This document shows, piece by piece, positions 2,261-57,055 of a stretch of 64,000 nucleotides of DNA. Made by a program: the position numbers and the translations under genes. The stretch comes from a bacterium (GTDB lineage: Bacteria; Patescibacteriota; Minisyncoccia; UBA6257; 2-01-FULL-56-20). Each line of letters begins with the position of its first letter. Position 1 is the stretch's first letter. The notes under the pieces are model-generated. The model saw only the letters and a list, made by a program, of their open reading frames with translations, ran no database searches and was not told where the DNA came from. The stretch is taken from positions 20,220 through 84,219 of the forward strand of contig JAJXZE010000002.1 in NCBI GenBank assembly GCA_021780195.1. The letters run 5' to 3'.

Positions 2261-2507
2261 TTGACAATATAATTTGGGTATGCTAGCATATACCCTGGAC
2301 TTGGAAAAAAGATAGTTGATTCAAATCTGGGGGCGGGAATTTTATCTAAAAACTTCAGGACGAACCGGTTCCGGCTGGTTTTATCCTTTGATTAATTCTA
2401 ACCTCTTTTATCCTTGGATAAAAGAGATACATTATCCTTTCGCGAGGTAATGCCCCCAGGTTTGAGGCAAGTATCTGGTAAAGAGCTCGGCCCGCGCGCC
2501 GGGTTTT

Positions 2508-4208: not shown

Positions 4209-4323
4209 TGGTATGATTTTAGCGCCGATGGCCCCGCGGAGGAAGTGCCTCTCCGTCGAAGGGCTCGCCCTAGCGCCGTCCCAATGCCTCCTCCCGCACC
4301 CCATCGCGCCGTACCCTTTTACC

Positions 4324-4353
4324 TTGACTAACAGGCATCGTAAGTGGCATAAT
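4324..4353 (+). promoter_or_regulatory. sigma70-like promoter (TTGACT, 18 nt spacer, CATAAT) upstream of the secreted protein gene
   Basis: The hexamers are read directly from the sequence. Confidence 0.4.
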
Positions 4354-4406
4354 ATGGGTGTTCTTTAAAAATTCACGTGCCGCCTCCGGGCGGCGAGGAG
4401 AGAATC

Positions 4407-5024: not shown

Positions 5025-5253
5025 CCTTCCCCGTGCCGCAGACCTTGCGCGCACGGGATTTTTTTATTTCAAATCTCCCTCCATCACCCCCCCGCGCCCG
5101 CTACGCAGAAAAATTCAAGGAACAGGGGCGCAGGAAGGCGCTTCTTCTTTCACGGACATTAAAGGGAGCCCATGGCCGAGAAAGAAGAAGGGCCTTCCTG
5201 CGCCTTGGGCTTTGTTTGCTCCGCGGGCGCGGGAGTATAATGCCAGTGTCATC

Positions 5254-5820
5254 ATGTCCGGGCACTCACATTGGGCGGGAATCAAGCACAAAAAGGAAAT
5301 CACCGACCAGAAGCGCGGGAAGATATTCTCGAAGCTTCTCGCGGCAATCTCGGCGGCGGCAAAAACCGAGCCGAACCCCGACTTCAACCCGCGCCTCCGC
5401 ACGGCGGTCCAGAAAGCGAGAGAGGCGAGCGTGCCGCAGGAAAATATCGAGCGCGCGATAAAGCGCGCCGCGGAAACGGGCGCGGCGCTCGAAGAGCTCG
5501 TCTTTGAGGCATATGGCCCGGGCGGCATCGCGCTCCTCATGACGGCGATCAGCGACAACCGGAACCGCACGGTCCAGGAGGTGAAACTCGCCCTCAAAGA
5601 ACGCGGCGGCAAGTGGGCCGAGGAAGGCAGCGTCCGCTGGGCCTTCGAATTCGCGCCCTCGGAGGACGGGAGCGGCATCGCGTGGCGCGCAAAATTCCCG
5701 CAGGACGTCGCACCGGACGATGCCGCAAAACTTGCGGCACTCATTGAGGCGCTTGAGGAGGTAAATGATGTGCAGGCGGTCATCACGAACGCGGCGGAGG
5801 CCGCGGAAGAAACCCAATGA
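5254..5820 (+). CDS. yebC: YebC/PmpR family DNA-binding transcriptional regulator
   Basis: MSGHSHWAGIKHKK...GPGG family signature. TATAAT at 5235-5240. Confidence 0.9.
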   Translation: MSGHSHWAGIKHKKEITDQKRGKIFSKLLAAISAAAKTEPNPDFNPRLRTAVQKAREASVPQENIERAIKRAAETGAALEELVFEAYGPGGIALLMTAISDNRNRTVQEVKLALKERGGKWAEEGSVRWAFEFAPSEDGSGIAWRAKFPQDVAPDDAAKLAALIEALEEVNDVQAVITNAAEAAEETQ

Positions 5821-6284
5821 TTTCCCTCGGCATCGATCCGGGTACGCGGAGGATCGGCTACGGCGTCGTGAAGCGCGAGGGCAACGTGCTCTCCATGGTC
5901 GCCGCGGGACTCCTTGACATAAAGAGCGGCGACGATGCTTCCGCGCTCATGGAGGCCAAGCACGGCATGGATTCCCTGATAAAAAAATTCAAGCCGGAGA
6001 CCGCGGGAGTGGAGCGTCTTTATTTCGCTAAAAACCAGAAGACGGCGATCGCCGTGGCCCAGGCGCGCGGCGTGATCCTCCTTGCGGCGCGCGAGGCGCG
6101 TCTCCTTATCAGAGAATATACGCCGAACGAAGTGAAGCTCGGGGTTGCGGGATATGGCTTCGCGGACAAGAAGGCAGTCCTCAAAATGGTTCGGCTTACC
6201 CTCGGCGCGCCAACTCTGAAAGTGATTGACGACGCTTCGGACGCCCTGGCGCTTGCCATCATGGCGGCCGGCGACCGTAGTTAA
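5817..6284 (+). CDS. ruvC: crossover junction endodeoxyribonuclease RuvC
   Basis: N-terminus MISLGIDPGTRRIGYGVV. ATGA overlap with yebC. Confidence 0.9.
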   Translation: MISLGIDPGTRRIGYGVVKREGNVLSMVAAGLLDIKSGDDASALMEAKHGMDSLIKKFKPETAGVERLYFAKNQKTAIAVAQARGVILLAAREARLLIREYTPNEVKLGVAGYGFADKKAVLKMVRLTLGAPTLKVIDDASDALALAIMAAGDRS

Positions 6285-6338
6285 GAGAATTTTAATGCCC
6301 GGTATGGCATACTCTTGGGGATTGACACGGAAACGCGC

Positions 6339-6370
6339 ATCCGTATACTGATTTGGAAACAAACGAAAGG
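6339..6370 (+). promoter_or_regulatory. sigma70-like promoter (TTGACA, 16 nt spacer, TATACT)
   Basis: The hexamers are read directly, upstream of the small acidic ORF and the PBP gene. Confidence 0.4.
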
Positions 6371-6389
6371 TCGTGAAATAAGAGCGATT

Positions 6390-6569
6390 ATGGTAACCGA
6401 TTTACAAATTTTAAACCTTGCATTCGCCCCGATCAGCGACGACGAGAGCGACCAGGACGTCGACCTCGGCGATACCGATATCGAGGACGAAGACGAAGAG
6501 GATGACGACGCGGACGAAGCGGGCACCGGCGCGGAAGAAGAGGAAGAAACCGGCACGGGAGAGCTCTAG
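6390..6569 (+). CDS. small, very acidic protein (59 aa) with a D/E-rich tail
   Basis: The ORF lies between the promoter and the PBP gene. Its composition is low-complexity. Confidence 0.3.
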   Translation: MVTDLQILNLAFAPISDDESDQDVDLGDTDIEDEDEEDDDADEAGTGAEEEEETGTGEL

Positions 6570-6677
6570 TATCCGCGCTTCCCTTTCTCGCTTTTAAAAC
6601 AGAACGGCTCCTCCCGGCAACGCACGTTGCGGAAAGGGCCGTTTTTGTTTGATAATAAGAAGGTGAAAAAACGGACG

Positions 6678-8822
6678 ATGCGACGGTGGCAGATCGCGGG
6701 GATTGCGGCGGCGGGAGCGCTCGCCCTCTTTTTCATCTCGGTGCTCTACCTCGCAAGCACCCTGCCCTCCATCCAGGAGATTGCGAACCAGACCATCAGC
6801 CAATCCACGAAGATCTACGACCGCACGGGAACGATCCTCCTGTACGAAATTTCGAGCGGCGAGCGCAGGACCGTACTCCCCTTCAACGAGATCCCGCAAT
6901 CGATGAAGGATGCCACCGTTTCGATCGAGGATCAGAATTTTTATAACGAGCCCGCGTTCGACGTAAGAGGAATCCTCCGCGCGTTCTACGTCGACCTCAC
7001 GACCGCCTCCATCTCCCAGGGCGGCTCCACAATCACCCAACAGCTCGCGCGCACGGCGTTCCTCACCCTCAACCAGACCGTCACGCGGAAGATCAAGGAG
7101 CTCATCCTCGCCATCAAGCTCAACGAGTACTACACAAAGGACGAGATCCTCGCCCTCTACTTGAATCAGGTGCCGTACGGCCCGACCATCTCCGGGGTCG
7201 AAGCGGCGAGCGAAGCGTATTTCGGTATCCCGGCCTCCCAGATGAATCTCGCCCAGAGCGCGATGCTCGCGGCAATCCCCCAGGCGCCGAGCTATTACAA
7301 CCCGTGGGGGACGCACGTTGAGGAGCTCCTCGCGCGCCAGAAACTCGTGCTCCAGAAAATGTACGAGCTTGGTAAGATATCGAAGGGCGACCTGAACCAG
7401 GCGCTCGCTTATAAGATCGTCATCCAGCCGCGGCGGGCGAACGGCATGCTCGCGCCGCACTTCGTCCTCGCGGTCGAGGATTATCTCGTGCAGAAATATG
7501 GCGAAGCGATGGTGGATCGCGGCGGTCTGAAGGTCGTGACCACGCTCGATTGGAACCTCGAGCAAGACGCCGAGGAATCCGTGAAGCAGGGCGCGGAGCA
7601 GAACCAGGCGCTCTATCAGGGATACAACGCCGCGCTCGTCGCGGAAGACCCTGCGACGGGCCAGATCCTCGCCATGGTGGGGTCGCGCGATTATTTTGCG
7701 ACCTCCTCCCTCCCCTTCGGCTGCACTCCGGGCGCGAACTGCAAATTCGAGCCGAACTTCAACGTGGCCACCCAGGGGCTCCGCCAGCCCGGCTCATCGC
7801 TGAAGCCGTTCGTATATCTCACCGCATTTGAGGACGGCTATACCCCCGACACCATCCTCTTCGACGTGCCGACGGAATTCAGTACTGATTCCGCGTGCCC
7901 CAGCATCCCCGATATGGCGAGCGCGAATAAGCTCTGCTTCCACCCCGCCGACTTCGAAGGGACGTTCGCGGGGCCGATAACCATCCGCGACGCACTGGCG
8001 CAGTCGGTGAACGTACCCGCCGTAAAGGCGCTCTATCTCGTGGGAGTGAAGAACGCCGTCCAGAACGCGTATAATTTCGGCCTCACCACGCTCACGAGCC
8101 CCGACACGTACGGTCTCTCCCTCGTCCTCGGCGGCGGCGCAGTGCACCTTATTGATCTCACCGGGGCCTATTCCGTCCTCGCCGCGGACGGCGTGAAGCA
8201 TGACCAGGCAATGGTGCTCTCCGTGCAGGATGCGAACGGCAACACGCTTGAATCATGGACCGACCGCGCGACCACCGTGGCGCCCGCCCAGCCGGTGCGC
8301 CTCGTGAACGACATCCTCTCGGATGCGCAGGCGCGCGAACCGCTTTTTGCGAACAGCATGAATCTCACCGTATTCCCCGGGCACGACGTCGCCATGAAGA
8401 CAGGCACCTCGAATGACTATCGCGACGCATGGGCGATGGGGTATACCCCCTCACTCGCGGTCGGCGTCTGGGCGGGAAATAACGACAACACGCCGATGCA
8501 GAAGAACGGCTCGAGCATCCTCGCCGCGGTCCCTATATGGCACGCCTTCCTCGTGAAAGCCCTTGCCGACCAGCCGCTCGAGACCTTCGTGAAGCCCGAA
8601 CCAGTGATCCCCGCAAAGCCCGTATTCGCCGGCCAGTACGTCATCAATAACCAGGTTCATTCCATCCTGTATTATGTCGATAAAAACGATCCGACGGGAC
8701 CCGTCCCCGCGGATCCGGCCGCCGACCCGCAGTTTCATAACTGGGAACTCGGCGTGCAGGCATGGGTCGCCGTCCACCTGCCTCAATATTCTGGAGCGAG
8801 CACGGCGCCGGCGGCGCAATAG
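6678..8822 (+). CDS. class A penicillin-binding protein (PBP1A, transglycosylase/transpeptidase)
   Basis: N-terminal TM, GT51 motifs (EDQNFYNEP, RKIKE), and a transpeptidase domain. Alternative TTG start at 6627. Confidence 0.9.
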   Translation: MRRWQIAGIAAAGALALFFISVLYLASTLPSIQEIANQTISQSTKIYDRTGTILLYEISSGERRTVLPFNEIPQSMKDATVSIEDQNFYNEPAFDVRGILRAFYVDLTTASISQGGSTITQQLARTAFLTLNQTVTRKIKELILAIKLNEYYTKDEILALYLNQVPYGPTISGVEAASEAYFGIPASQMNLAQSAMLAAIPQAPSYYNPWGTHVEELLARQKLVLQKMYELGKISKGDLNQALAYKIVIQPRRANGMLAPHFVLAVEDYLVQKYGEAMVDRGGLKVVTTLDWNLEQDAEESVKQGAEQNQALYQGYNAALVAEDPATGQILAMVGSRDYFATSSLPFGCTPGANCKFEPNFNVATQGLRQPGSSLKPFVYLTAFEDGYTPDTILFDVPTEFSTDSACPSIPDMASANKLCFHPADFEGTFAGPITIRDALAQSVNVPAVKALYLVGVKNAVQNAYNFGLTTLTSPDTYGLSLVLGGGAVHLIDLTGAYSVLAADGVKHDQAMVLSVQDANGNTLESWTDRATTVAPAQPVRLVNDILSDAQAREPLFANSMNLTVFPGHDVAMKTGTSNDYRDAWAMGYTPSLAVGVWAGNNDNTPMQKNGSSILAAVPIWHAFLVKALADQPLETFVKPEPVIPAKPVFAGQYVINNQVHSILYYVDKNDPTGPVPADPAADPQFHNWELGVQAWVAVHLPQYSGASTAPAAQ

Positions 8823-8849
8823 CGCGCGCCGCATCCCGCCGCGCCGGCG

Positions 8850-9962
8850 CTAAGACTTCAGGATCGGCTTTAGGATGTAGAAATACGAAGCGTCATTCAC
8901 GGGCCGGATTAACGCCGGGTTCACCTCCTCCTGGAACCCGATGAACACCTCCTCAGCTTTCATGGCCCGCACGGGATCCGCGAGGTAGCGCCAGTTGAAA
9001 AACGCCTCACTCGCTTCGCCCTTCACCTTCGCGGGCAGGAGATAACTATTCTCGCCGAGCGCCTGGTCGGCGGAGATGATCTCGATCGCCTTTTTTGCGG
9101 GATGTGCGACGATCTTCACCTCGCTCGTCTTCTGACCAAAAACACCGGCGAGTTTTATCGCATTCGCGAATTCCTCCCGATTCACGGAGATCTCCGCTGA
9201 AAACCGCTTCGGCACAATCTGCGAATAGTCGGGGAAGCTACCCTCCGTAAGGCGCGAAATAAGTTCCGCGCGCTCCGTCTGGAAAAGCACCTGGTTCTCA
9301 TCCCTGAAAATTTTCACCTCCTCGTCGTCCCGCGCTATCCGGAACACCTCCTGGCTCGTCTTTAGGGGAATCAGCATCCGGAACGGTTCTTGGAATTTTG
9401 CGGTGAAAAGATTTTGTGGGATGTTTTTTTCCGCAAGCCGGAAACCGTCCGTAGCGACGAGTTTTACCGCATCAAGAAGGAAGTCGAAAAGTACCGCATT
9501 GAGTTCGGGGCGGAGATCCGAGAATTGGGAAGCGACGACCACCTGCTGGATAGCGTCCTTAAGGATAATCCCCTTCATCCCAAGATAATCTTCCCCATTC
9601 TTGATCTTTGGCGTGATGGGAAAATCCTCAGGGGGGAGCCCCTGTATGGTCGCGCTGTAATTGTCGGTTTTTATCTCAAGTGAGTTCCCCTTCTTCCCGA
9701 AATTAAGGCGGTCACTCTGGAGATTGGTGATGAGATTAGAGAGGAGCGCGATGGGCACCGTGACCCTGCCCCCCTCGATCACCTTCCCGGAAACATGATA
9801 GGTGATTGCAATCTCAAGATTGGTCGCGGTAAGAGTGATTTCATCTTCCACCGCCTCAATGAGCACATTCCGAAGGATGGGGAGATTAAGATTTTCACCC
9901 GCCGCGCGCTCAATGGCGGAAATAGCCTCCTTGATATTCGATCTGATGGCGATAAACTTCAT
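8850..9962 (-). CDS. dnaN: DNA polymerase III beta sliding clamp
   Basis: Three-domain clamp pattern. Positioned downstream of dnaA. Confidence 0.9.
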   Translation of the reverse strand: MKFIAIRSNIKEAISAIERAAGENLNLPILRNVLIEAVEDEITLTATNLEIAITYHVSGKVIEGGRVTVPIALLSNLITNLQSDRLNFGKKGNSLEIKTDNYSATIQGLPPEDFPITPKIKNGEDYLGMKGIILKDAIQQVVVASQFSDLRPELNAVLFDFLLDAVKLVATDGFRLAEKNIPQNLFTAKFQEPFRMLIPLKTSQEVFRIARDDEEVKIFRDENQVLFQTERAELISRLTEGSFPDYSQIVPKRFSAEISVNREEFANAIKLAGVFGQKTSEVKIVAHPAKKAIEIISADQALGENSYLLPAKVKGEASEAFFNWRYLADPVRAMKAEEVFIGFQEEVNPALIRPVNDASYFYILKPILKS

Positions 9963-10105
9963 TGTGGATAATTATACTGGTAATAGTATTAAATTCCTAT
10001 TAAAAGAAAATACTTATTATTGGATTTATTACCTTTTAATTTTCTGGGGATAACACCTTTCCTGTGGGATTTCTTTATAATTTTTTAAGGACAACCTGTG
10101 GATCA
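9963..10105. other. candidate oriC: AT-rich dnaN-dnaA intergenic region with DnaA boxes
   Basis: A perfect TGTGGATAA at 9963-9971. One-mismatch boxes TTATCCCCA (minus strand, ~10047-10055) and TGTGGATCA (10097-10105). AT-rich tracts in a GC-rich genome. Confidence 0.6.
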
Positions 10106-11455
10106 GCTCTTATAAAGAATATCCTTTATGGTTAATATCTTCTGGTTGAGCGCGGGATTCTTGTTCACCTCCTGGTTGATTTTCTCGTAGGAGTGGATGG
10201 CGGTAGTGTGGTCCCTCCCCATCTTTTCCCCAATGTACGGGTAGGAAAGTTCGGAAATTTCACGGAGGAGATACATCGCGATCTGCCGCGGCTCCACAAT
10301 TTCCTTCCGGCGGTTATGGCTTACCAGGTCTTCGATGGAAACATTGAAGAATTCAGCGACTGCCTTCAATATTTGGGCGTCCCCGACCCTCTTGGACAGG
10401 TTCTTCGTCGATTTGTCGATGATCTCCTCCGCAAGCGCCATGGTGATCTCGGTGTGTCCGGTTTCCTGGAGGAAGAGGAGCTTTTTCAGAACCCCCTCGA
10501 GCTCGCGGATGTTCTTCCTGAGGCGCCTCGCGAGAAGGTCCACCACGTTGTCATCGATGTTGCGTCCAGCCTCGGAAAGCCTGCTCCGTATGATGGCGAC
10601 GCGCATTTCGTACTCCGGGTATCCGATGTCGGCCACAAACCCTCCTTCAAAACGCGAACGGAGGCGTTCCTCAAGGGTGGGGAGAGACTGCGGCGGCCGG
10701 TCGGAGGAAATAATGATCTGCTTGTTTGCCTCGTAAAGGGCGTTGAAGGTATGAAAGAATTCCTCCTCCGTTTTTTCCTTCCCGCCGATGAATTGGATGT
10801 CGTCGATGATGAGTACGTCGGCGTCGCGATATTTTTTCTTCACGCTCTCGATCCGGTCGTTGCGGAGCCCCCACACCACCTCCCTTGTGAACTGTTCCGA
10901 GGGGACGTATTTCGGCTTTATCTTTTTCTGATAGCGCGAGACGATCTCATTTCCCACCGCCTGGATGAGGTGCGTCTTGCCGAGGCCCACGCCGCCATAA
11001 ATGAAGAATGGATTATATTTCCCGATCACTTCCGTGATCGCCTTCGCGGCCGCGAAGGCGAGTTCGTTCGAGGGGCCGACCACAAAGGTGGAAAAGGTGT
11101 AGCGGGGGTTGAGGTTGGTCTCCGGATCCGCCCTCCCGAGATCGAGTTCGCCGGCCCCGAGCTCGCCGAGCTCCTTCGATGACGCCGCGGCCTTCTGCGG
11201 CGCAGGCATCTGGGAGTTGATGACGAACTCAACCTTCTTCACGGAGTTTTCTTTGTTGCGGAGGATGCCGAGAATGTTCTTGTGATACTTATCCTCAATC
11301 CAGGACTTCGCAAAATTGCTCGGCAGGGACACGTAGAGGGTGCCTTCGCGCCAGTCGATGGGCCGGCTCTCCTTCAGCCACATCGAAAAGTTGGCTTTCG
11401 TAAGTTGGATCTCCATCTCCCCGAGGGTTGATTGCCAAAGTTTTTCGAGATCCAT
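10103..11455 (-). CDS. dnaA: chromosomal replication initiator DnaA
   Basis: Walker [14 protein letters not shown]+ domain, and a C-terminal DnaA-box binding domain. Confidence 0.95.
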
Positions 11456-11622
11456 GTGCGGTGATGTTTATTATTAACTCTTACGCTCCCGCCGTCAAAG
11501 AGTCAAATGAAAGCGTTTGGGGACGGCATGGGTATAATCTGGGGATTCGGCGTCGCGGTAGCCCGCATCGCGCGAGCACGGGGCGCTGGCATATTTTTTT
11601 GCGGCATGATACTATCTTCTCA

Positions 11623-11757
11623 ATGTCGCAGACCTATAATCCCAAGAAGAAAAAGAGGCGGCGGACGCACGGGTTCCTCGCGCGCCAGGCAACTCCGGGA
11701 GGGAAGCGCGTGCTCGCGCGGCGCCGGGCGAAGGGACGCCGCCGACTCGCGGTCTGA
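11623..11757 (+). CDS. rpmH: 50S ribosomal protein L34
   Basis: Sequence [50 protein letters not shown] at 11538-11543. Confidence 0.9.
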
Positions 11758-11773
11758 CCCACGCGAAAGCCGC

Positions 11774-12106
11774 ATGACGACCGCGACGCGGGCGCGACTG
11801 CCGAGAGAGGCGTTCAGGGCGGGATGGGAAAAAACGATCGCCACCCCGTATTTTTTACTGAAGCGCCGGCGGAACGGCGGAACGCGGCGCCGGATCGGGG
11901 TCGTGATCGGTGTTGCGGCCGCGAAGACCGCGGCGCGGCGCAACTTCTGGAAGCGCCAGGCAAGGGAAGCACTTTCGGCCGCCATCCCGGCGAACAGGGC
12001 CGCGCCCGACGATCTTCTGCTCATTTTTTCGCCGAAAGTGTCCCGCATTACTAAAAAAGAATTCCGGAAAACAGTGGAGGGGGCGCTCTCCCGCATTGGC
12101 GCATAG
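11774..12106 (+). CDS. rnpA: ribonuclease P protein component
   Basis: Basic ~110 aa protein immediately after rpmH, in the conserved rpmH-rnpA-yidC order. Confidence 0.8.
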   Translation: MTTATRARLPREAFRAGWEKTIATPYFLLKRRRNGGTRRRIGVVIGVAAAKTAARRNFWKRQAREALSAAIPANRAAPDDLLLIFSPKVSRITKKEFRKTVEGALSRIGA

Positions 12107-50184: not shown

Positions 50185-50317
50185 GGGGCGTAAAAAGGGC
50201 TTAATCTTTTTTATTTATCGTCATAAAATTATGACAATTAATGCTATAAAACTCGGCCATTTGTATCATGAAAATACTTATTTCTGCAGAAATTTAGAAA
50301 GATGCGCCACAAGAACT

Positions 50318-50350
50318 TGACAGTTTTCATTGCATATGGTAATATATCAC
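50318..50350 (+). promoter_or_regulatory. strong sigma70-like promoter with extended -10 (TTGACA, 17 nt spacer, TGgTAATAT) pointing into the ORF-free structured region
   Basis: Read directly. Divergent from the trmB-like gene. The palindrome GTCATA-AAAT-TATGAC sits at 50225-50240. Confidence 0.55.
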
Positions 50351-50356
50351 CAGCAC

Positions 50357-51084
50357 GATGACAGAGGGGGTGGTTCCGGAGGGTGCGCGGCTGGCAGGGA
50401 GGGGAATGGATTGAAGGGATCTATTCCTCTCCCCGAGAGCAAGAGGAGAGGCCTAAGGAGATCCGGGGAAGAGATCTTCATCAGCTCTTTGTAAAACGAC
50501 GGTCGCTCGCGGATATCAGTCTCGAGGAGAGAGTTATCTCGCAGGGCGATTCAGTCAAGCATTCGTCGCGGCGCGTGTCATCGCTTCAAAAGAGCGAGAG
50601 CGGTAGCGGGGCCAGGGAGTCGACGACTCTGCCTCCAATGCCGCGCTGATCAAATCGATCCACAGCGCCACCACGTTTCTTTTTGTGAGATACGTTGCCG
50701 GCGAAACGGTCCAACCCGCCGTTTCTCGGCAAAAATCTCCCCGAAAGAGGAGAGTGATATGGTTCCCTTAGTAAGGAGATCGACTGGAGAGCAAGCTCGG
50801 GTCCGGTTGGTCTCCAGAAACCTCCTTACTAACTCGATCGCAATCTGCGAAAACCGAGGAGAGAGCAGATTGTTAGAGGAGAGAGTAAGGAAGTACCTTG
50901 AAAATTGAATAGCCAAAGTAGTGCTTATAGCGATTATACGTTCGCGGATTATTACACGGGAGCGTCCGAGCTATGGCATTTTGACTTTGAAGTTCCTCCC
51001 GAGTTTGGTTGTCAACTGAGGTTCTGATTTTTGGTGCTTCAGTTGGCAATCAAACTCAAATACGAAACGAAAGGAGGGAGTCAA
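50357..51084 (+). ncRNA. ~0.7-kb ORF-poor, highly structured transcribed leader / candidate large ncRNA with five GAGGAGAG repeats and one 49-aa sORF (50759-50908)
   Basis: Nested hairpins, for example 50768-50833 (TTAGTAAGGAG...CTCCTTACTAA enclosing CTGGAGA...TCTCCAG). GAGGAGAG at 50443, 50524, 50748, 50847, 50870. No ORF over 60 aa except overlapping antisense artefacts. Confidence 0.45.
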
Positions 51085-51555
51085 ATGAACTATTTGTTGG
51101 GGTCGGGTGAGGCGGTCATTGATCGTTTCAACTCGCACGTTCACGACGGAGTGGCGCGGCTCCTACCCGCGGCGCTGCTTCGAGTTCAGTCACAGGGTAG
51201 GAAGTTCCTCATCGAGGAAGTTGACTTTGGTCAACCAGTCGGTGAGACGATCTGCGTTCCAACCGGGCCAGGGGACGAGATCGTATACGCAATTCGGCCC
51301 AAGAGATTCGGGCACTCGCGGTTCGTCAAAAATCGCAAGCCCGAGCCATGTGGTGCGGTGACGATCATTCTCAAAAGGGATGAATTTGATCCGTACTATG
51401 TCCTAATTACGGCCTTCGTAGGCCATAAACCTGAGCCCGAGCCATGGGATCGCAATTCCAATGGTTTGAGTCGGGACTTCTGGAGTTCTCACGCCCTCAT
51501 CTGGGGGTGCGAGGAAGTCATGCACAACACAGTAACCACGGAATGTCCGTGGTAA
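51085..51555 (+). CDS. hypothetical protein (156 aa), island gene 1
   Basis: Strong ribosome-binding site AAAGGAGGG 7 nt upstream. No recognisable domain. Confidence 0.6.
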   Translation: MNYLLGSGEAVIDRFNSHVHDGVARLLPAALLRVQSQGRKFLIEEVDFGQPVGETICVPTGPGDEIVYAIRPKRFGHSRFVKNRKPEPCGAVTIILKRDEFDPYYVLITAFVGHKPEPEPWDRNSNGLSRDFWSSHALIWGCEEVMHNTVTTECPW

Positions 51556-51583
51556 CAACAGCAACAGAGAAAGGAGAAACGAA

Positions 51584-51874
51584 ATGAAAATCAAGAGGTT
51601 GTTTTTGGCGCTGTGCGCCAAGAGGTTGGTTGTCGACATCATCACCGCTGACAACAGAGCGTTTCAGTTGAGCGGTGACCGACGGTTCGAGGGGATGTAT
51701 GAGCGGCTATTCCATGCCGACTCTCACCCCACTCGCAGAAACGTTGGAGAAGGTGAGATGCAGTGGGCTTTCGACCAGGCCAGAGAAATCCGGCTTTGGA
51801 TGGGCCCCACGGAGTATCGCACGATCACAACAACTGAGCTCGAATCCGAGCTCACGCCATTCCCGGTTCGATAG
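51584..51874 (+). CDS. hypothetical protein (96 aa), island gene 2
   Basis: Ribosome-binding site GAAAGGAGAAAC. Confidence 0.55.
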   Translation: MKIKRLFLALCAKRLVVDIITADNRAFQLSGDRRFEGMYERLFHADSHPTRRNVGEGEMQWAFDQAREIRLWMGPTEYRTITTTELESELTPFPVR

Positions 51875-51888
51875 AAAAGGAGGAGACG

Positions 51889-52338
51889 ATGAGTCACATC
51901 AGAAAGGAGACCGTGCGTGGATTCGATACCGTCCACCCGGTTGTTCTGCAAGAAGGTATCAAGGTGGCCTGTCAACTTCTCTCGCTTCAGGGCCTGAAGG
52001 TGACTGATCATGTCTTTGATTGGAGTGGCCATAAGGTCACCGAGTACAACGGCATGAATGTTATCTGCGGCTTGGACGCACAGGGGTCGGCCTCGTCCCA
52101 CAAGTTTGCGGGACTGGGGCTCGCAGTCGACCAGAAGGGCAAGCTCGCGATTGTCGGAGATTTTTATTACTCCGAGCAAGAGCAGCGAGCCCAGGAACTC
52201 AAGAAGATGATCGAAACAGTTCTTGGCGGAGCCTGCTACTTTGCGGCACGGGCGATGATCGCCACGGCCAAGGGGCAGCGGACTCAGATCAAGATCAACC
52301 AAGAAACCCGCCAGCTTCAGCTGGTGGTGCAGATGTGA
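51889..52338 (+). CDS. hypothetical protein (149 aa), island gene 3
   Basis: Ribosome-binding site AAAGGAGGAG. Confidence 0.55.
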   Translation: MSHIRKETVRGFDTVHPVVLQEGIKVACQLLSLQGLKVTDHVFDWSGHKVTEYNGMNVICGLDAQGSASSHKFAGLGLAVDQKGKLAIVGDFYYSEQEQRAQELKKMIETVLGGACYFAARAMIATAKGQRTQIKINQETRQLQLVVQM

Positions 52339-52357
52339 GATGAGAAAGGAGGACGTC

Positions 52358-52573
52358 ATGGCAAGAGAAGTCATAACGATCGGCGGAGACGGAGGCGTCG
52401 GCTCTGAAATGTTCGGGTTCAAAGGCAAGAGCTGCCTCAAAGCGGCGGCTGAGATTGCCGAAGAGCTCAAGCGGCTCGGAGTGGTTGCCGACATCGGCGG
52501 AATCAGCATGAAAGAGGATGCCGAGGTCGTGACCGAGACGCAGCAAGCGGCAATGAAGGTCGAAAGGGGATGA
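52358..52573 (+). CDS. small hypothetical protein (71 aa) immediately upstream of the radical SAM gene
   Basis: Ribosome-binding site GAAAGGAGGAC. Gly-rich N-terminus ITIGGDGGVGSEMFGFKGKSC. Confidence 0.45.
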   Translation: MAREVITIGGDGGVGSEMFGFKGKSCLKAAAEIAEELKRLGVVADIGGISMKEDAEVVTETQQAAMKVERG

Positions 52574-53205
52574 AAGTTATGGTTATGCCCCGCGTAAACC
52601 TTCACGACTTCGTCCCCCGGTCTCGTGCAAACGGGCCGGGGGAGCGAGCGGTGGTTTGGGTGCAGGGTTGCCCTCGGCGTTGTCCGGGGTGTTTCAATCC
52701 CGAAACCTTACCATTCGTTACCAAGAATTGGGTAACCGTTGATGATCTTGAGAGCCGAATCTTGGCTCAAAACAACATTGACGGCGTCACCTTTTCTGGT
52801 GGCGAACCGTTCGCACATGCACAGGCACTTGCCGAGTTGGCGAAAAAGCTGCGCAAGTATGGATTGACGGTGGTGTGTTACACCGGCTACACGCTCAAGC
52901 AACTTAAGGCCGGAAATCGCGAGGACTGGAATGCTCTTCTTTCAGAAGTAGACCTTCTGATTGACGGGCCATTCATCCAAGAGCAGCGGTGCCATGAACC
53001 ATATCGCGGCTCGGCAAACCAAATTCTTCACCTTCTTACCGATCGCATCCGATTGGAGGAAGTTCATGGGCAAAGCCAGACAGCAGAGTTCACACTCGGC
53101 GCTGGCGGAGACATCCAGCAAACTGGATTCCCTGAACTCCCCGACATGGATGCGGTCATGGGAGAAATCTCAGGGATCCTCAAACAGACAGGAGGATCGA
53201 AATGA
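52570..53205 (+). CDS. NrdG-like radical SAM glycyl-radical activating enzyme (4Fe-4S, CxxxCxxC)
   Basis: NGPGERAVVWVQGCPRRCPGCFNPE, GVTFSGGEPF, VVCYTGYTLKQL and LIDGPF...YRGSANQILHLL align with NrdG family hallmarks. Confidence 0.8.
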   Translation: MKVMVMPRVNLHDFVPRSRANGPGERAVVWVQGCPRRCPGCFNPETLPFVTKNWVTVDDLESRILAQNNIDGVTFSGGEPFAHAQALAELAKKLRKYGLTVVCYTGYTLKQLKAGNREDWNALLSEVDLLIDGPFIQEQRCHEPYRGSANQILHLLTDRIRLEEVHGQSQTAEFTLGAGGDIQQTGFPELPDMDAVMGEISGILKQTGGSK

Positions 53206-55010
53206 AAGATACGAAGAATTGTGCCGTAACGGCACACAGTTGGTTTGAGTCTTTTGCTCGTGCCTACGCGGCCGAGCTCGGGTACGTGTTTCTTATCTCC
53301 GGCAACATCGCAGATTTATTCCCCTTGGGGAGCGAGTTCGTGACCTTGCGCCAGTTCTGGGCAAGGCAGTTGGATGGCAGAGACATTGTGGTGTTCTGGG
53401 ATAAGTCGGCGGGGTTCGCCTTTGCTGACGAAATCCTCGGCACCAAACCGGCCGAAGGGCAACTCCCGATGAGGGAGAAGTTCAAGGCCGCAGTCGGACT
53501 GAATCAGCAGCAAGGTAATGGCGGCAGCAATGCCTCTAACTTGCTGGCTGGCTTGGCTGGATTGGGCGGCGGCAACAACGGCGCGCTTCCCACTGATCCT
53601 GAGCAAGCTTTCCAGCTTCTGGAAAAATTGCTCTCACAGGGCAAGCCAGAAGATCGGAAGGCGGCGGTAGTCGTGGAGTACATCGAAAGTGTTATCCCCG
53701 AAAACGACTACGGGTCAGTTCCGGCAGTAACGCTCCAACGGTGGGCGTCTCTGGACAGCCCGCTCAAGGGTACCGGCAACCCGGTTATCCTGATCGAGCG
53801 GAATCCAGAACGGGCCTCTAGTGTAGTGAAGCATGACGATTCGTCGGTAGTGCGGATCCACATTCCTCGTCCGAACAAAGAGGAGTTCGGAACATTCATC
53901 CGTCACAGCCTGAAGGTCAACGGCGTTAAGCTCGCCGAAGGCCTGACGGTGGACGTGGCGGCCAACCTGTCAGCCGGGCTACGTTGCAAGGACTTTGACG
54001 ACTTTGTCATGAAGTCGCTCGAGTCCGGCGACCCAATCAACGACACCTTTATTTGGCAGAAAAAGGTGGAGTTGATTGAGAAGCAGTCCGGCGGGGTCCT
54101 GCAGGTGGTAAGACCCAAGCATGGGTTCGAATCCATCGGCGGGCTGGAGCACGTCAAGAGCGCCCTACGGGTGCAGATTGACAAGCTTCGCAGTGGTTCC
54201 AGAACCACTGATAAGGGTTGGATTCTGATGGGGCCTCCGGGAACGGGGAAAACCATCATCGCCGAGGCGCTGGCGAAAGAGTCGGGTGTCAATTTCGTGA
54301 TGCTCGGCAACGTCCTCTCCAAGTATGTGGGTGACTCGGAGAGAAACATGAATCTCGCTATGGAAATTGCCCGAGCCATGGCGCCCACAATCATCTTCGT
54401 TGACGAAGCCGCTGAGGCAATCGGAAACGGAGAGGGCTACAACGGGGATAGCGGCGTCAGCAATCGTGTAAGGGGGAAACTCCAGAACGTGATGGGTGAC
54501 GACTCTGCCCGGGGCCAGCTGTTCTTTATGCTGGCAACGAACTATCCCAATCGTCTGGCACCGGCGATTCTGCGTGAGGGAAGGATGGACAAGCGGGTGC
54601 CACTCTTGGTTCCTGACAGCACCGGGAGAAATGAGATTCTCAAAGCGCTTTGCCTAAAGTATGGCATTGCGTCCGAGGGAATCGACTTTTCACCTGCCCT
54701 TGCCAGTACGGAAGGGTGGACAGGTGCTGAGCTCGAGGCGCTTTTACTCCGAGCGAAGCAATTTGCAGAGGAGGAGGAAGTGCCGGTCGAGACCCGTCAT
54801 TTCGATGAAGCGGTAAAGGATTACATCCCGAGCCGCGACCAGCAGGCGTTCGACCTGATGACCGCGTTGGCCATCAGGTACACGAACTCCAGACGGCTTC
54901 TGCCCGAGGCCTATCGGTCTGCGAATGGAGAAATTCAGAAGCGGATCGATGAGCTCGAGCCTCAGGTGGCCGAGCGCGAAGCAAGGCGCCGGGGCGGGCT
55001 GAAGCTCTAG
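53202..55010 (+). CDS. AAA+ ATPase (single classical AAA domain, ~280-aa N-terminal unknown domain), C-terminus RRRGGLKL
   Basis: Walker [15 protein letters not shown], Walker B IIFVDEA, second region of homology ATNYPNRLAPAILREGRMD. Confidence 0.85.
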   Translation: MKDTKNCAVTAHSWFESFARAYAAELGYVFLISGNIADLFPLGSEFVTLRQFWARQLDGRDIVVFWDKSAGFAFADEILGTKPAEGQLPMREKFKAAVGLNQQQGNGGSNASNLLAGLAGLGGGNNGALPTDPEQAFQLLEKLLSQGKPEDRKAAVVVEYIESVIPENDYGSVPAVTLQRWASLDSPLKGTGNPVILIERNPERASSVVKHDDSSVVRIHIPRPNKEEFGTFIRHSLKVNGVKLAEGLTVDVAANLSAGLRCKDFDDFVMKSLESGDPINDTFIWQKKVELIEKQSGGVLQVVRPKHGFESIGGLEHVKSALRVQIDKLRSGSRTTDKGWILMGPPGTGKTIIAEALAKESGVNFVMLGNVLSKYVGDSERNMNLAMEIARAMAPTIIFVDEAAEAIGNGEGYNGDSGVSNRVRGKLQNVMGDDSARGQLFFMLATNYPNRLAPAILREGRMDKRVPLLVPDSTGRNEILKALCLKYGIASEGIDFSPALASTEGWTGAELEALLLRAKQFAEEEEVPVETRHFDEAVKDYIPSRDQQAFDLMTALAIRYTNSRRLLPEAYRSANGEIQKRIDELEPQVAEREARRRGGLKL

Positions 55011-55868
55011 TCCGAAACACCAACACAGAAACGAAAAGAATGGAGGTGATTCCAATGTAGTTCTTATGGCGAGAGCCACGGAGAACCCGAATCTTTCCGC
55101 GGGATGGAGTGTGCGGGGAAGATCGGAGGCGGTCTTCGGTAGGGCTGCTTCTTAAAACATGACCCGGCGATGCATCAGGCCGAAGTCTGATGTAGGTTCC
55201 AGCGGCAGATGTTTGTCGGCTATCAGGGATATCCGGCAGACAGTTGGAACAAAGGGGTTTGTACATTTGCGGGTTCATTGGTGTGCGAGCTTCTCTCCCT
55301 GAAATGGAGAAACGAACCAAAAGCGAAGTTAACCTTCAACCGGCGGTTGGCAATCATCCGTCGAGCGTTAACCCCAAGTGGAATTAGCGGTGCTTAATAA
55401 AGGCCACAGGCCTAATGAGCCGCTAAATCCAGCAAGGTCGCAGAGTTCCCTTCGGGGGATAAATAAATTGCATAAGCCGAGAAATCGGAATGCGGATCGC
55501 GCTTGACTTAAAGCGCGAGAAGCGAGTGGCCAGTCAATCGGCCGTCCGATTTGTCCAGTTGCGAGCAACATTGCAGTTGGACTAGGCGAAGATTGAACGC
55601 GCTCATCCGCGAAACTTCAAATTCGGCCTAGGGTTCGATGAGGGGTTCTATAAAATTCTTGACTTTGGCCAAGTCTTGGCGGCACTTGCTTTGCCGTAAC
55701 CTCGGGCTAATCGCAAGTTAGCTCGAGGAAAGCAAGAAGGGTTTAGGGTTTACAGTCCGGGCGAGTTGACGCACTCAACTCGCCCCTTCTTCCGAACTCA
55801 TCATCATGGTGATGATGAGTTCGGAGAGAGGGTTCATTGACAACCAAATACGAAAGGAGGAAAGCAGA
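55011..55868 (+). ncRNA. ~0.85-kb ORF-free structured region (candidate large ncRNA or processed intercistronic RNA)
   Basis: Numerous hairpins and long-range pairings, for example 55759-55785 (10-bp stem), 55792-55824 (15-bp perfect stem), and TGGAATTAGCGGTGC...GAGCCGCTAAATCCA. No coding potential. Confidence 0.45.
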
Positions 55869-56621
55869 ATGGACAAGGTCCAAATCTACCCGCAAGGGCT
55901 CGGAGAGTACGAGCGGACACTTGGTCTGCGCTGGTCGGTATCATATTACTTGATGCCAGAAGCGCATACGTGCCAAGTGGTCTGCGACGGTCGCGAGCGA
56001 AAGTGTGAGATTTGGATCAACGGTACCACGTACCGAAATCCAGAACTCATGTTCGCTGATGTGATTCATGAGCTCTGCCATTGTAGTTTGGCAGAACGAA
56101 TCGATCCGGCTTTCTCGACGGTTTTCTTTTCCAACAAATGGAATGAAATCAGTCGAGAAGATGAGGCTCGGTTCGGTCAGCTTGCTCGCATGCTCTACTA
56201 CGCGTGGAGTCATGTAGACATTTGGGTGAACGATCTTCGTTTCGCCCACTGGCCAGAGCTCACAAACGAGGATCACAATACTTTTGCACAAGGGATGGTA
56301 GCAATCGTCCAAGCGCAGGAGTGGCGTGTTCTGCAGTCACCCGAAACAGTTCTTGGTCTGGCTCAATACCAGGCTGAGAGGAATCGGCATCATGTCAATA
56401 CGCCTGATCTGTTTGCAGCTTTAGAGGCAAACGGAGTGGGCGTGGATGACCAAATCCGAAAATTGGCTATCTACTTTGAGTCTTTGCCTCGATTGAAGTT
56501 CAATCAGAGAAAGGACTTGAAGGCACTCGAGCGGTCAGTTCAGGACGCAGCGAAGATGCTGAACTTTCCTATCACCCCCCGGCTTGTCTGGGAGGAACGA
56601 TGGGTATGGAGTCTCGACTGA
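55869..56621 (+). CDS. hypothetical protein with HExxH motif (VIHELCHCSL), putative metallopeptidase
   Basis: Ribosome-binding site GAAAGGAGGAAAGCAGA. HELCH motif. The called ORF (55806) extends upstream into the hairpins. Confidence 0.55.
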   Translation: MDKVQIYPQGLGEYERTLGLRWSVSYYLMPEAHTCQVVCDGRERKCEIWINGTTYRNPELMFADVIHELCHCSLAERIDPAFSTVFFSNKWNEISREDEARFGQLARMLYYAWSHVDIWVNDLRFAHWPELTNEDHNTFAQGMVAIVQAQEWRVLQSPETVLGLAQYQAERNRHHVNTPDLFAALEANGVGVDDQIRKLAIYFESLPRLKFNQRKDLKALERSVQDAAKMLNFPITPRLVWEERWVWSLD

Positions 56622-56658
56622 GACCCAAAGCAAAAAGCAAAAGGAAAGGAGAAATAAA

Positions 56659-57000
56659 ATGAGAAACGGCAATTTCCTGTATCAGCTGAGTTTGCAGGAG
56701 GCTTTCATTGTTCACCGCGGCGTAAGCCAAGGCGGCAAGAAGCTGAATGCAGATCAGCGGAGGATTTTCTGGCAGAGAAATAGCCAGAAGGTCAGCGGTG
56801 TCGAGATTGGTGCCGGCAAGGTGCTGGTCTCACTGGTTGGGCTCAGAGTTCTTCGCGAGAAGAATCTCGTGATCGTTTCCAACCCCGGGAAACCGAGGAT
56901 ATGGACGATCAAGCGGATCATGGAATCCGCTGAGAGGAATCAAGTTATTCCAGAACTGACGCAGGGATCGTCTCAGCGTCGAGGTGGACTGAAGCTGTAG
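56659..57000 (+). CDS. small protein (113 aa) ending in RRGGLKL
   Basis: Ribosome-binding site GGAAAGGAGAAATAAA. The C-terminal heptapeptide is identical to that of the AAA+ ATPase, with different codons. Confidence 0.55.
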   Translation: MRNGNFLYQLSLQEAFIVHRGVSQGGKKLNADQRRIFWQRNSQKVSGVEIGAGKVLVSLVGLRVLREKNLVIVSNPGKPRIWTIKRIMESAERNQVIPELTQGSSQRRGGLKL

Positions 57001-57055
57001 CAATTCCAAACCTGTTTGCCTCAGGCAAACGCAACTGAAATGAAAGGAGATCGAA

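Follow-up and report, generated by a model that had tools for sequence, protein, structure and literature searches.

Very few bacterial non-coding RNAs are longer than 500 nt, namely ribosomal RNAs, RNase P, group II introns, OLE, GOLLD and ROOL, and each of them does something elaborate. OLE (RF01071), found in Firmicutes, acts as a ribonucleoprotein together with the Oap partners, which are encoded beside it (oapA, oapB, oapC). GOLLD and ROOL are large ornate RNAs of unknown function that emerged from comparative genomics; they lie in tRNA-rich regions of prophage-like character and assemble into cages made of RNA alone (PMC12286853). Indeed, RNAs of the ROOL, GOLLD and OLE type were found by cryo-EM to form homo-oligomers (PMC12286853). 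For the processing of long transcripts, the RNase III hairpins between the cistrons of T7 early mRNA offer a comparison, as do bacterial operon transcripts processed by ribozymes. Finally, C-terminal docking motifs common to two activators of one ring are known from mycobacterial Mpa and Bpa (GQYL) and from proteasomal ATPases (HbYX).

Here we describe a non-coding gap (55011-55868) in a window, the whole analyzed stretch of 64,000 nucleotides, of DNA from Patescibacteria, which are ultra-small bacteria. It lies between the TAG (55008-55010) of an AAA+ ATPase gene and the ATG (55869) of a gene for an HExxH protein. The original prediction had proposed that the gap gives a large structured non-coding RNA co-transcribed with the protein genes. 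This was largely right: the RNA is supported, while co-transcription is only inferred. Like OLE, the gap RNA is a highly conserved multi-helix bacterial RNA of ~0.6-0.8 kb on the same strand as the adjoining protein genes. It differs from OLE in its host and in its neighbors (AAA+, radical SAM and DUF2997 proteins); a sequence or structure match is missing in Rfam, and the formation of a ribonucleoprotein is only inferred. With GOLLD and ROOL, which are of comparable or larger size, it shares the ornate character, the unknown function and the origin in comparative genomics. In contrast to them it sits inside a chromosomal protein operon, has no Rfam match and shows no conserved self-complementary loops that we could see. 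The prediction had claimed no match to these three RNAs, which is consistent with our data. The sequence criteria of a large ornate bacterial non-coding RNA (>500 nt, non-coding, many covarying helices across species) are met, with the proviso that this is a descriptive class and not a homology family.

We see in this RNA a new large bacterial non-coding RNA with good covariation support, from a radiation with almost no known RNA biology; in the literature searched, no description of the RNA or of its operon was found. Besides genes for a Cdc48-like AAA+ protein, an NrdG-like radical SAM protein and DUF2997, the conserved operon, whose function is unknown, has a candidate ribozyme, a hairpin module that recurs and an mRNA of unusual order. 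Experiments can start from the transcript ends, the predicted self-cleavage, an RNA large enough for cryo-EM and the common tail of two proteins; they could uncover a new RNA-protein machine and explain what makes organisms with reduced genomes retain 0.8-2 kb of non-coding DNA at this place.

Results and Discussion

The prediction stated that the gap contains no open reading frame over 60 aa. This is slightly off, because mechanical reading frames of 62 and 67 aa lie inside it; a third one extends into it (Table 1). Every frame is interrupted by 7-14 stops, the majority of the indels are not multiples of three (10 of 13 between the window and locus L161, 19 of 25 between the window and L166), and the substitutions are distributed over the three codon phases as 50/57/57, so that codon periodicity is absent. 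A decayed or missed protein gene could be argued for, given that gene callers put small reading frames into the gaps of L166 (68 aa), L172 (78 aa) and L233 (77 and 60 aa), but these are not conserved across loci, and no conserved gene was placed by the callers at the gap position in the syntenic loci. A conserved reading frame with a codon-phase substitution pattern, which we would require of a protein-coding gene, is thus not seen. Together with compensatory base-pair changes, which indicate selection on RNA structure, these data all but exclude a protein gene as well as non-functional spacer DNA.

The plus strand of the gap has a minimum free energy of -340 kcal/mol, which corresponds to z = -10.3 relative to 20 dinucleotide-shuffled sequences, while the minus strand reaches only z = -4.8. 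In a separate run with 12 shuffles the gap gave z = -7.6; for twelve control windows of 858 nt, taken from outside the operon, z lay between -3.5 and +2.0. The gaps of L162, L163 and L231, the three that we folded, are each highly structured as well (z -7.5 to -11). The adjacent coding windows are also strongly negative (-5.8 and -8.7 in the AAA gene, -4.2 in g436), so folding energy alone does not single out the gap. What singles it out is conservation together with covariation. Our main test used a five-locus alignment made with MAFFT only, that is, without structural information. It supports 221 base pairs in 34 helices, with 92.9% of the cells paired. Compensatory double changes occur in 64 of the 221 pairs, compared with 6-13 in slid controls, and none of 500 shuffles reached 64. 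In the central domain, such changes affect 33 of 39 pairs (9-12 in slid controls). The covariation rests on 5-10 sequences, and the alignments made with covariance models are fitted to the model. We conclude that the gap holds a non-coding, strand-specific structure that is conserved in position and supported by covariation.

Three outcomes would have refuted the original prediction: no structural conservation or covariation in homologous loci, a folding energy no different from that of dinucleotide-shuffled sequence, and a missed protein-coding gene. All three came out in favor of a structured RNA; the structure is kept with abundant compensatory changes, the energy lies far below the shuffles with strand asymmetry, and the indels, the missing periodicity and the stops in all frames speak against a gene. 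The individual elements that had been named also held. The hairpin at 55759-55785, for which 10 bp were claimed, has 11 (55759-55769/55775-55785); that at 55792-55824 has the 15 perfect pairs claimed (55792-55806/55810-55824) and can be extended to ~22 bp (55786-55830); the CATCAG/CTGATG hairpin is found at 55173-55178/55187-55192, and the long-range complementarity around 55380-55440 corresponds to 55378-55396/55416-55433.

In 11 distinct syntenic contigs of Patescibacteria, the orthologue of the AAA+ gene is followed by an ORF-free gap, 0.76-2.0 kb in length. Covariance models of the central domain (R1 and R3) detect the RNA in nine loci. Outside the window these matches, all on the plus strand in the gap after the AAA gene, are in L161, L166, L167, L169, L162, L230, L233 and, as two tandem copies, L172. 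L233 was not part of the training set and was matched by R3 with E = 1.4e-7, whereas 857 kb of unrelated AAA+ loci, obtained from protein-alignment scans and used as negative control, gave no match with E <= 1. The distant copies (L162, L230, L233 and both of L172) were recovered only by covariance models; an nhmmer sequence profile missed L162, L163, L230 and L231. The two L172 copies have diverged to 69% mean column identity. For the structured gaps of L163 and L231, homology to the family could not be demonstrated with covariance models, even with the filters off. Two relatives, L234 (71% identity) and L081 (52%), have no gap after the AAA gene, which shows that the protein system can exist without the RNA at that position.

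With Rfam 15 at gathering thresholds, the whole window gave three tRNAs only. At E <= 10, the region 54800-56000 gave hairpin noise from miRNA and snoRNA models and c-di-GMP-II-GCG at E = 9; no family reached its gathering threshold, including OLE, GOLLD, ROOL, raiA, HEARO, group I/II introns, RNase P, tmRNA, 6S and riboswitches. A blastn search of the gap against a phage collection and a scan of viral contigs with the AAA protein both remained without a match. The invariant 16-mer AGGCGAAGATTGA(N)ACG matched 56 viral-contig loci, none of which was convincing with the nhmmer profile of the full RNA, and we regard them as chance matches. Protein-alignment scans of metagenome and genome collections were of little use as well: the automatically chosen patterns coincided with the Walker A motif, which is generic, and returned almost only unrelated AAA+ loci, with L081 as the one relevant match.

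Table 1. Positions in the window of the RNA, its parts and the neighboring elements.
Feature	Position	Strand	Basis or remark
Promoter-like site TTGACA-17-TAATAT with upstream TG	50317-50345	+	10/12 matches plus TG
AAA+ ATPase gene, directly upstream of RNA	53202-55010	+	Pfam AAA domain
TTG reading frame, 148 aa	54874-55320	-	extends into gap
Mechanical reading frame, 62 aa	55209-55397	+	inside gap
Mechanical reading frame, 67 aa	55368-55571	-	inside gap
A/C-rich linker, AAA+ stop codon to RNA	55011-55036	+	sequence; unpaired in MFE, centroid and consensus folds
Translation-initiation-like 5' edge	55037-55060	+	sequence
Variable 5' domain	55061-55337	+	five-sequence alignment, consensus fold, covariation
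5'-domain hairpins	55067-55078, 55084-55105, 55115-55140	+	
5'-domain hairpin	55173-55192	+	covaries in 5/5 aligned sequences
5'-domain helix	55196-55203/55243-55250	+	compensatory changes in 7/8 pairs
5'-domain helix	55253-55262/55285-55295	+	
Conserved central domain	55338-55482	+	covariance models R1, R3
Third domain	55483-55651	+	helices 20-27, several with compensatory changes
Third-domain helix enclosing two hairpins	55484-55489/55545-55550	+	
Third-domain 12-bp hairpin	55553-55582	+	
Third-domain stretch AGGCGAAGAUUGA	55584-55596	+	13-mer invariant in five aligned loci
Third-domain hairpin	55629-55650	+	
Multi-branch junction, closed by AAAUUCU/AGGGUUU (55653-55659/55745-55751)	55652-55752	+	
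Junction hairpins	55660-55676, 55677-55696, 55700-55728, 55730-55744	+	
3' terminal module: 11-bp hairpin (55759-55785), then ~22-bp hairpin CCCUUCUUCCGAAC...GUUCGGAGAGAGGG (55786-55830)	55759-55837	+	helices 33, 34
113-aa protein gene, downstream of RNA	56659-57000	+	C-terminus RRGGLKL, as in AAA+ ATPase
Candidate type III hammerhead ribozyme, after last operon gene	58684-58736	+	sequence; Rfam RF00008
Hammerhead stem III	58684-58689/58731-58736	+	UCUCUU/AAGAGA; A15.1-U16.1 is first pair
Hammerhead predicted cleavage	after U58690	+	
Hammerhead stem I	58691-58708	+	CUCGGAU-GUGU-AUCCGAG
Hammerhead core CUGAUGA	58709-58715	+	
Hammerhead stem II	58716-58727	+	GUCC-GAAA-GGAC
Hammerhead GAAA	58728-58731	+	

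The 5' edge carries an extended Shine-Dalgarno motif, GGAGGUGAU (55042-55050), and a start codon with an immediate stop, AUG-UAG (55055-55060), 4 nt past this motif and 8 nt past its GGAGG core. In the inspected loci (L161, L162, L163, L166, L167, L169 and both copies of L172), AAGGAGG(UG) occurs close to where the gap begins. It is followed by mini-ORFs in L161 (AUG-GGC-UAG), L167 (UUG-UAG), L169 (UUG-UAA) and the first L172 copy (four codons); L162 and L163 have none. In the 5' domain a pseudoknot is likely between the loop of hairpin 55173-55192 (GCCG, 55179-55182) and the complementary CGGC at 55165-55168; both partners change together in L161 (CAGC/GCUG). The first hairpins of this domain are missing in L167 and L169 and present in both L172 copies. 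The central domain is closed by GGUU-GCAAU/AUUGC-AAGCC, and the long-range helix mentioned above contains the motif GUGCUUAAnAAAG-[5-bp hairpin]-CUAAUGAGC. A kink-turn reading of this motif was rejected by inspection; the consensus G·A/A·G arrangement is not matched. A further model, R2, recovers the junction part also in copy a of L172 (3597-3782) and in L233 (6973-7201).

The RNA would belong to a long polycistronic transcript. Its start would be the promoter-like site, which lies ~770 nt before the first reading frame. This site is the likely, though inferred, transcript start and would give a leader of ~730 nt. The proposed order is two small reading frames of unknown function (the first ending in ...ECPW), a 149-aa reading frame, DUF2997, the NrdG-like radical SAM protein, the Cdc48-like AAA+ protein, the RNA, and then the HExxH, 113-aa and ~500-aa genes. 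Between 54700 and 56100 we found no promoter-like or terminator-like site on the plus strand. Co-transcription with the protein genes is hence plausible as an inference; expression data do not exist. We had suspected the 149-aa protein to be DUF1257 from its MSHI... start, which Pfam did not support even at E <= 10. A reading as defence system was also discarded, with PADLOC giving only weak generic matches of the IetA and viperin type.

The AAA gene is always directly upstream of the RNA. In its product the tandem architecture resembles that of Cdc48/p97/Rix7, the first domain being degenerate; the C-terminus is RRRGGLKL, and an AlphaFold model (pLDDT 85) aligns over ~600 columns with Cdc48, p97, Drg1, Rix7 and NVL. 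The gene after the RNA varies: it encodes the HExxH protein in the window, L161, L172 and L230, and a ~115-aa protein in L162, L167 and L169. The 264-aa reading frame after the L163 gap was not checked for the HExxH motif. PDB sequence searches gave nothing for the HExxH protein, the 436-aa protein and the N-terminal half of the AAA protein. The RRGGLKL tail of the 113-aa protein is nearly invariant in 20 homologues, and in diverged loci it changes in step with that of the AAA protein. A model of the 113-aa protein (pLDDT 81) had no fold match in the PDB and no recognizable RNA-binding fold.

The main rival to an independent RNA is a cis-acting intercistronic element that stays in the mRNA and adjusts how strongly the gene blocks before and after it are expressed relative to each other. 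In one or more ways it could block 3'-to-5' decay of the upstream mRNA, shield the 850-nt untranslated stretch from Rho, or control ribosome loading on the downstream genes, either via the 5' start-stop mini-ORF or by sensing a ligand or protein. In its favor, the RNA lies inside an operon without a promoter- or terminator-like site of its own, its 5' edge resembles a real translation start with an immediate stop, its 3' hairpin module recurs between other cistrons in the manner of intercistronic stabilizers, and the whole transcript is structured. Against it, no known stabilizer or leader comes near a length of ~790 nt with 34 helices, a likely pseudoknot and single-stranded motifs that are invariant, the downstream gene is not constant, the diverged tandem duplication in L172 is hard to explain for a leader, and Rfam gave no match to a riboswitch or leader family. 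A fixed place before one gene family together with an expression platform, as expected of a leader or riboswitch, is not observed, and by inspection we found no pairing that sequesters the downstream Shine-Dalgarno sequence. On balance the odds lean against this explanation.

Further copies of the 3' double-hairpin module are found on the plus strand, in other intergenic regions of the syntenic operons as well as at 58555-58749 of the window. The latter copy, a paralogue of the RNA's own module, contains the candidate hammerhead, and L161 and L166 have the same element and core at the same place. The core is complete (C3-A9 as CUGAUGA, G12-A14 within GAAA, G10.1-C11.1, A15.1-U16.1 and H17, with a permitted cleavage triplet), and with stems I and II closed by loops and stem III open the type III layout is met. 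The score in RF00008, 24.1 bits, is below the gathering threshold of 48.5 (E = 0.013 in a 751-nt search), and the local alignment omits stem III. The element thus remains a candidate, with its self-cleavage inferred from sequence and the transcript end putatively near it.

Long near-perfect duplexes such as the one in the 3' module are of the kind cut by RNase III. As in T7 early mRNA and ribozyme-processed operons, such hairpins recur between cistrons, and one copy carries a hammerhead. By analogy, this would fit a transcript divided into defined pieces whose ends are protected by hairpins, the cleavage being inferred. A difference to T7 is that the module is joined to a conserved structured body of ~700 nt, which has no counterpart there. 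The 3' module is our candidate for an end at which the RNA is processed or protected, and release or at least stabilization by processing there is the probable, although only inferred, course; the far end of the operon RNA would be set by the hammerhead.

We favor the reading that ~55037-55837 (+) is a multi-domain structured non-coding RNA of ~790 nt, from a family uncatalogued in Rfam, that is excised as a stable RNA from the operon transcript and works in trans with the operon proteins. To this joint statement we give a probability of roughly 0.45. Co-transcription, processing, trans action and the protein partners are all inferred, without expression or RNA-protein contact data. Trans action is preferred over a leader because the downstream gene varies while the upstream AAA gene is constant, and because L172 has two diverged tandem copies. 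Processing is invoked because the 3' module recurs between cistrons, because one copy includes a core-intact hammerhead kept in L161 and L166, and because no plus-strand promoter- or terminator-like site flanks the RNA. The released RNA would be the subunit or scaffold of a particle, for which the AAA+ unfoldase and the 113-aa protein are the prime candidates as partners, since the RNA lies between their genes and both proteins end in the same docking tail, which co-evolves. The pairing of an AAA+ unfoldase with an unrelated small protein that has the same co-varying C-terminal peptide recalls, by analogy, the Mpa/Bpa and HbYX systems; the motif sequence differs, and no proteasome-like partner was identified. 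Weighing against the favored reading are the 113-aa protein without a recognizable RNA-binding fold, the AAA relatives without a gap, the undemonstrated homology of L163 and L231, the small number of covarying sequences and the structured coding parts of the operon.

One may also think of an RNA-only particle that self-assembles like ROOL, GOLLD or OLE into homo-oligomeric cages or dimers and needs no operon protein. The comparable size and the ornate multi-domain fold would agree with this. We consider it very unlikely, as there is no Rfam match to these RNAs and the context, operon-internal in Patescibacteria, differs from tRNA-rich prophage regions. Moreover, L167 and L169 both lack the one palindromic loop that we saw in the RNA, UUGGCCAA (55667-55674), and the idea of a kissing loop at this position was dropped.

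Returning to the trans-acting RNA, a bolder version is possible, to which we give a rather low probability. The gap RNA could be the core of an unknown Patescibacteria ribonucleoprotein machine, excised from a globally structured, ribozyme-terminated transcript, with the Cdc48/Rix7-like AAA+ protein and the small protein docking on the RNA or on a common partner via their identical tails. In a stronger form, the whole ordered transcript of ~9 kb would itself be handled as RNA cargo.

Indeed, the whole operon transcript (~9-9.5 kb), coding parts included, is unusually structured, with a mean z of -3.75 against -0.61 elsewhere; 75% of the windows in the operon have z below -3, compared with 9% elsewhere. 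The view of the gap as the structured region therefore needs widening: structure extends over the entire transcript, of which the gap is merely the largest non-coding portion. Possibly, part of the structural signal of the gap is a property of the whole transcript rather than of a discrete RNA. This leads to a last rival, in which the entire transcript is the functional unit, a genome-like ordered RNA that is cut to unit length by the hammerhead and packaged, exported or protected. The AAA+ ATPase could then be its motor, and the gap, its largest non-coding domain, could for example signal packaging or assembly. The island-wide structure of the sense strand, the hammerhead at the 3' end and the homologues of the first operon reading frame in jumbo phages speak for it. 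Against it, no capsid, replicase, reverse transcriptase or integrase was recognized, and a simpler cause of high mRNA structure, such as RNase resistance, is possible. The locus is also chromosomal and syntenic: the window contains genes for DnaA, PBP1, FtsH and UvrD, and the L163 operon is flanked by sigma-70, DnaG and MutS. The mobile-island context implied earlier has to be corrected accordingly to chromosomal Patescibacteria DNA without a demonstrable mobile island. We judge this rival to be unlikely. The signal of the structured island is weak in L163, a further point against it, whereas L162 shows the same sharp-edged island at 2101-12000. In the window the structure reaches into the leader (z -3 to -7.6), and conservation in L161, L166, L167 and L169 covers the final ~315 nt of this leader (50768-51080).

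Results and Discussion

The gap between the AAA+ ATPase gene and the HExxH gene (55011-55868, + strand) encodes a conserved, strand-specific, non-coding RNA, about 790 nt long and elaborately folded, which is linked to one AAA+ gene, on its 3' side, within a narrow clade of Patescibacteria. The original prediction had proposed here a large structured RNA co-transcribed with the protein genes. All the hairpins that it named were found in the gap and the structured, non-coding RNA held, while co-transcription is inferred only. The claim that no ORF exceeds 60 aa is not strictly true: two mechanical ORFs within the gap reach 62 and 67 aa, and a TTG ORF of 148 aa on the minus strand also extends into it. 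None of the three looks real, judged by stops, indels and codon-phase pattern. Every frame holds stops (7-14 each); 10 of 13 indels between the window and the related locus L161, and 19 of 25 between the window and L166, are not multiples of three; and the substitutions relative to L161 split 50/57/57 over the codon phases. Compared with dinucleotide shuffles, the + strand folds to a far lower energy (-340 kcal/mol, z = -10.3; - strand z = -4.8), the asymmetry expected from a transcript read off the + strand with G-U pairs.

Features of the window and of related loci with an orthologous AAA+ gene
Feature	Locus	Position	Strand	Remark
Promoter-like site TTGACA-17-TAATAT with TG	window	50317-50345	+	about 770 nt before first ORF
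AAA+ ATPase gene	window	53202-55010		602 aa; ends TAG at 5' border of gap
Central domain of the RNA	window	55338-55482	+	basis of covariance model
HExxH gene	window	55869-56621		250 aa; ATG at 3' border of gap
Candidate type III hammerhead	window	58684-58736	+	just after last operon gene
Terminator-like hairpin with T run	window	58997-59013	+	closes operon unit
3' module copy	L167	8493-8565
3' module copy	L169	8486-8694
3' module copy	L162	11433-11561
3' module copies	L230	1138-1289, 1777-1992
3' module copies	L231	305-529, 7709-7806
Gap	L161			843 nt
Gap	L166			976 nt
Gap	L167 / L168			757 nt
Gap	L169-L171			797 nt
Gap	L162			877 nt
Gap	L163-L165			821 nt
Gap	L172 / L173			~2000 nt
Gap	L230			1157 nt
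Gap	L231 / L232			1620 nt
Gap	L233			about 1.1-1.5 kb

RNAalifold on a MAFFT alignment of five sequences (window, L161, L166, L167 and L169) gave a consensus fold with 34 helices and 221 pairs that extends over about 55046-55837. On this sequence-only alignment 92.9% of the cells were paired and 64 pairs showed compensatory double changes, well above the 6-13 obtained when the 3' partners were slid by 1-3 columns; none of 500 shuffles equalled the observed covariation values. With the coding tests and this covariation against it, the explanation that the gap is a missed gene or junk is all but excluded. All five sequences show covariation in the CATCAG/CTGATG hairpin (55173-55192). The GCCG loop of this hairpin is complementary to CGGC at 55165-55168, and the joint alteration of both sides in L161 suggests a pseudoknot.

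Searches with a covariance model built on the central domain matched L230, L162, both halves of the L172 gap and L233, on the + strand and at the expected gap position. Rebuilt from nine sequences, with L233 outside the training set, the model recognised the L233 copy with E = 1.4e-7 and had no hit up to E = 1 among 857 kb of unrelated loci. The ten-sequence alignment of this domain, which is model-fitted, shows double changes in 33 of 39 pairs versus 9-12 in the slid controls. One main weakness of the whole case is that only 10 copies of the RNA are available for comparison. The L163 and L231 gaps could not be assigned to the RNA family. The best-conserved element of the RNA consists of GUGCUUAAnAAAG, a 5-bp hairpin and CUAAUGAGC.

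In all syntenic loci of the table, the sequence immediately after the AAA+ gene is free of ORFs; two relatives, L234 (71% AAA identity) and L081 (52%), have no such gap. Only L161, L166, L167, L169 and part of L172 can be aligned to the window gap by sequence, so that the RNA sequence is diverging far more rapidly than the protein encoded next to it. The structure of the three other gaps that we folded is comparable (L162, z = -11.0; L163, z = -7.5; L231, z = -10.3). In the L172 gap (2898-4913) the complete RNA occurs twice in tandem, as diverged copies whose mean column identity is 69%.

Rfam 15 gave no match to the gap region at gathering thresholds and only hairpin noise at E <= 10. By description this is a large ornate bacterial ncRNA, and measured against Rfam 15 it belongs to no known family; in the literature searched, neither the RNA nor its operon is described. 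The setting is new as well: a globally structured, probably ribozyme-terminated operon, beside a Cdc48-like ATPase.

How could the RNA be made and used? It would be produced as part of the operon RNA and then processed out at its hairpin module; both steps are inferred without expression data. The released RNA may then, as we favour, act in trans alongside the operon proteins. The alternative of a cis-acting intercistronic element remains possible. We prefer the trans-acting reading because the upstream gene is constant and the downstream gene variable, because the RNA can be tandemly duplicated, and because its size and complexity exceed those of any leader or stabiliser known to us. The whole chain is slightly more likely to be wrong than right (probability 0.45), and its other main weakness is the complete lack of expression data.

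No promoter-like or terminator-like site was found on the + strand flanks of the gap. The 5' edge reads ACGAAAAGAAUGGAGGUGAU, then AUG-UAG, and from sequence alone it resembles a genuine translation start; the mini-ORFs at this edge in related loci have one to four codons or are absent. The 3' module comprises AAGGGUUnAGGGUUUACA, an 11-bp hairpin, and CCCUUCUUCC and GGAGAGAGGG on either side of a long hairpin. A 3'-domain covariance model located it between other cistrons of the syntenic operons, in every case on the + strand, and it is confined to these operons. In a further module of the window (58555-58749) the candidate hammerhead stands in place of the plain long hairpin. It has every core nucleotide and all three stems, with cleavage predicted after U58690, and is conserved in the same place in L161 (~9290-9345) and L166 (~8910-8965); its Rfam RF00008 score is only 24.1 bits, short of the 48.5 set as gathering score.

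Structure in the operon is not confined to the gap, as became clear from a z-score scan. Over 50350-59950 (+), coding regions included, the mean z is -3.75 and 75% of the 300-nt windows lie below -3, versus -0.61 and 9% in the remainder of the window. This island has sharp edges, and L162 has a matching one, also sharp-edged (2101-12000); in L163 the pattern is seen only weakly. We have no tested explanation for this operon-wide structure. It could be read as a sign that the whole ordered transcript is the functional unit; we consider this unlikely. Two more low-z 300-nt windows lie at 2311-2610 (z = -9.7, +) and 4951-5250 (z = -8.2 and -7.2 on the two strands).

The near-consensus promoter-like site, the likely start of the operon transcript, is followed by a structured leader of about 730 nt (z down to -7.6; site and leader together 50317-51085, +). 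The last ~315 nt of this leader (50768-51080) are kept in L161, L166, L167 and L169 and may represent another conserved RNA element. A further promoter-like site, GAGACA-17-TATAAT with TG (58733-58761, +), and the terminator-like hairpin enclose a structured stretch of about 250 nt (z about -6). The region 58733-59025 (+) is possibly a small RNA gene; its conservation in L161 and L166 extends to about 58957.

The window is chromosomal bacterial DNA (DnaA, class A PBP, FtsH, UvrD, ComM, PilB-type and TraG-type ATPases, three tRNAs), and no evidence of a mobile island was found at the locus. Close AAA+ homologues (50-96% identity) are almost all on contigs labelled Patescibacteria, Paceibacterota or Parcubacteria; the L163 operon is flanked by sigma-70/DnaG and MutS. 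The conserved gene order is ~157 aa (...ECPW), ~96 aa, ~149 aa, ~72-aa DUF2997, ~205-aa NrdG-like radical SAM (a sub-threshold match to NrdG) and ~600-aa AAA+, then the gap, a ~250-aa HExxH protein (not always present), ~113 aa and ~500 aa. An RNA-only assembly, which would need none of these proteins, is considered very unlikely. The last gene (57056-58565) is interrupted in the window: its ORF ends at 58366, and the conserved C-terminal portion (...GEELYRSDRSNYKWFMLRVAKQ) resumes in another frame up to 58565. The gene is uninterrupted in L161 and L166; the interruption could reflect a frameshift, pseudogene status or misassembly.

The AAA+ model (pLDDT 85) aligns with Cdc48, p97, Drg1, Rix7 and NVL over about 600 columns, which makes the protein a tandem AAA protein; its first domain has lost the nucleotide-binding motifs. 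The AAA+ protein and the 113-aa protein encoded downstream of the RNA share the C-terminal peptide RRGGLKL (54990-55010 and 56977-57000, respectively), near-invariant across 20 homologues of the latter, and in diverged loci both tails change together (RRRSL/RRVSGL in L231, GKIEF/GKGIQF in L081). This suggests docking on one partner, a possibility that rests on sequence comparison only. No PDB entry matched the fold of the 113-aa model (pLDDT 81). The protein of the first operon ORF (157 aa, 51082-51555) matches phrog_23674 (E 4e-21) and has full-length homologues, at 35-40% identity, in enterobacterial jumbo phages that are GAP32-like and Rak2-like.
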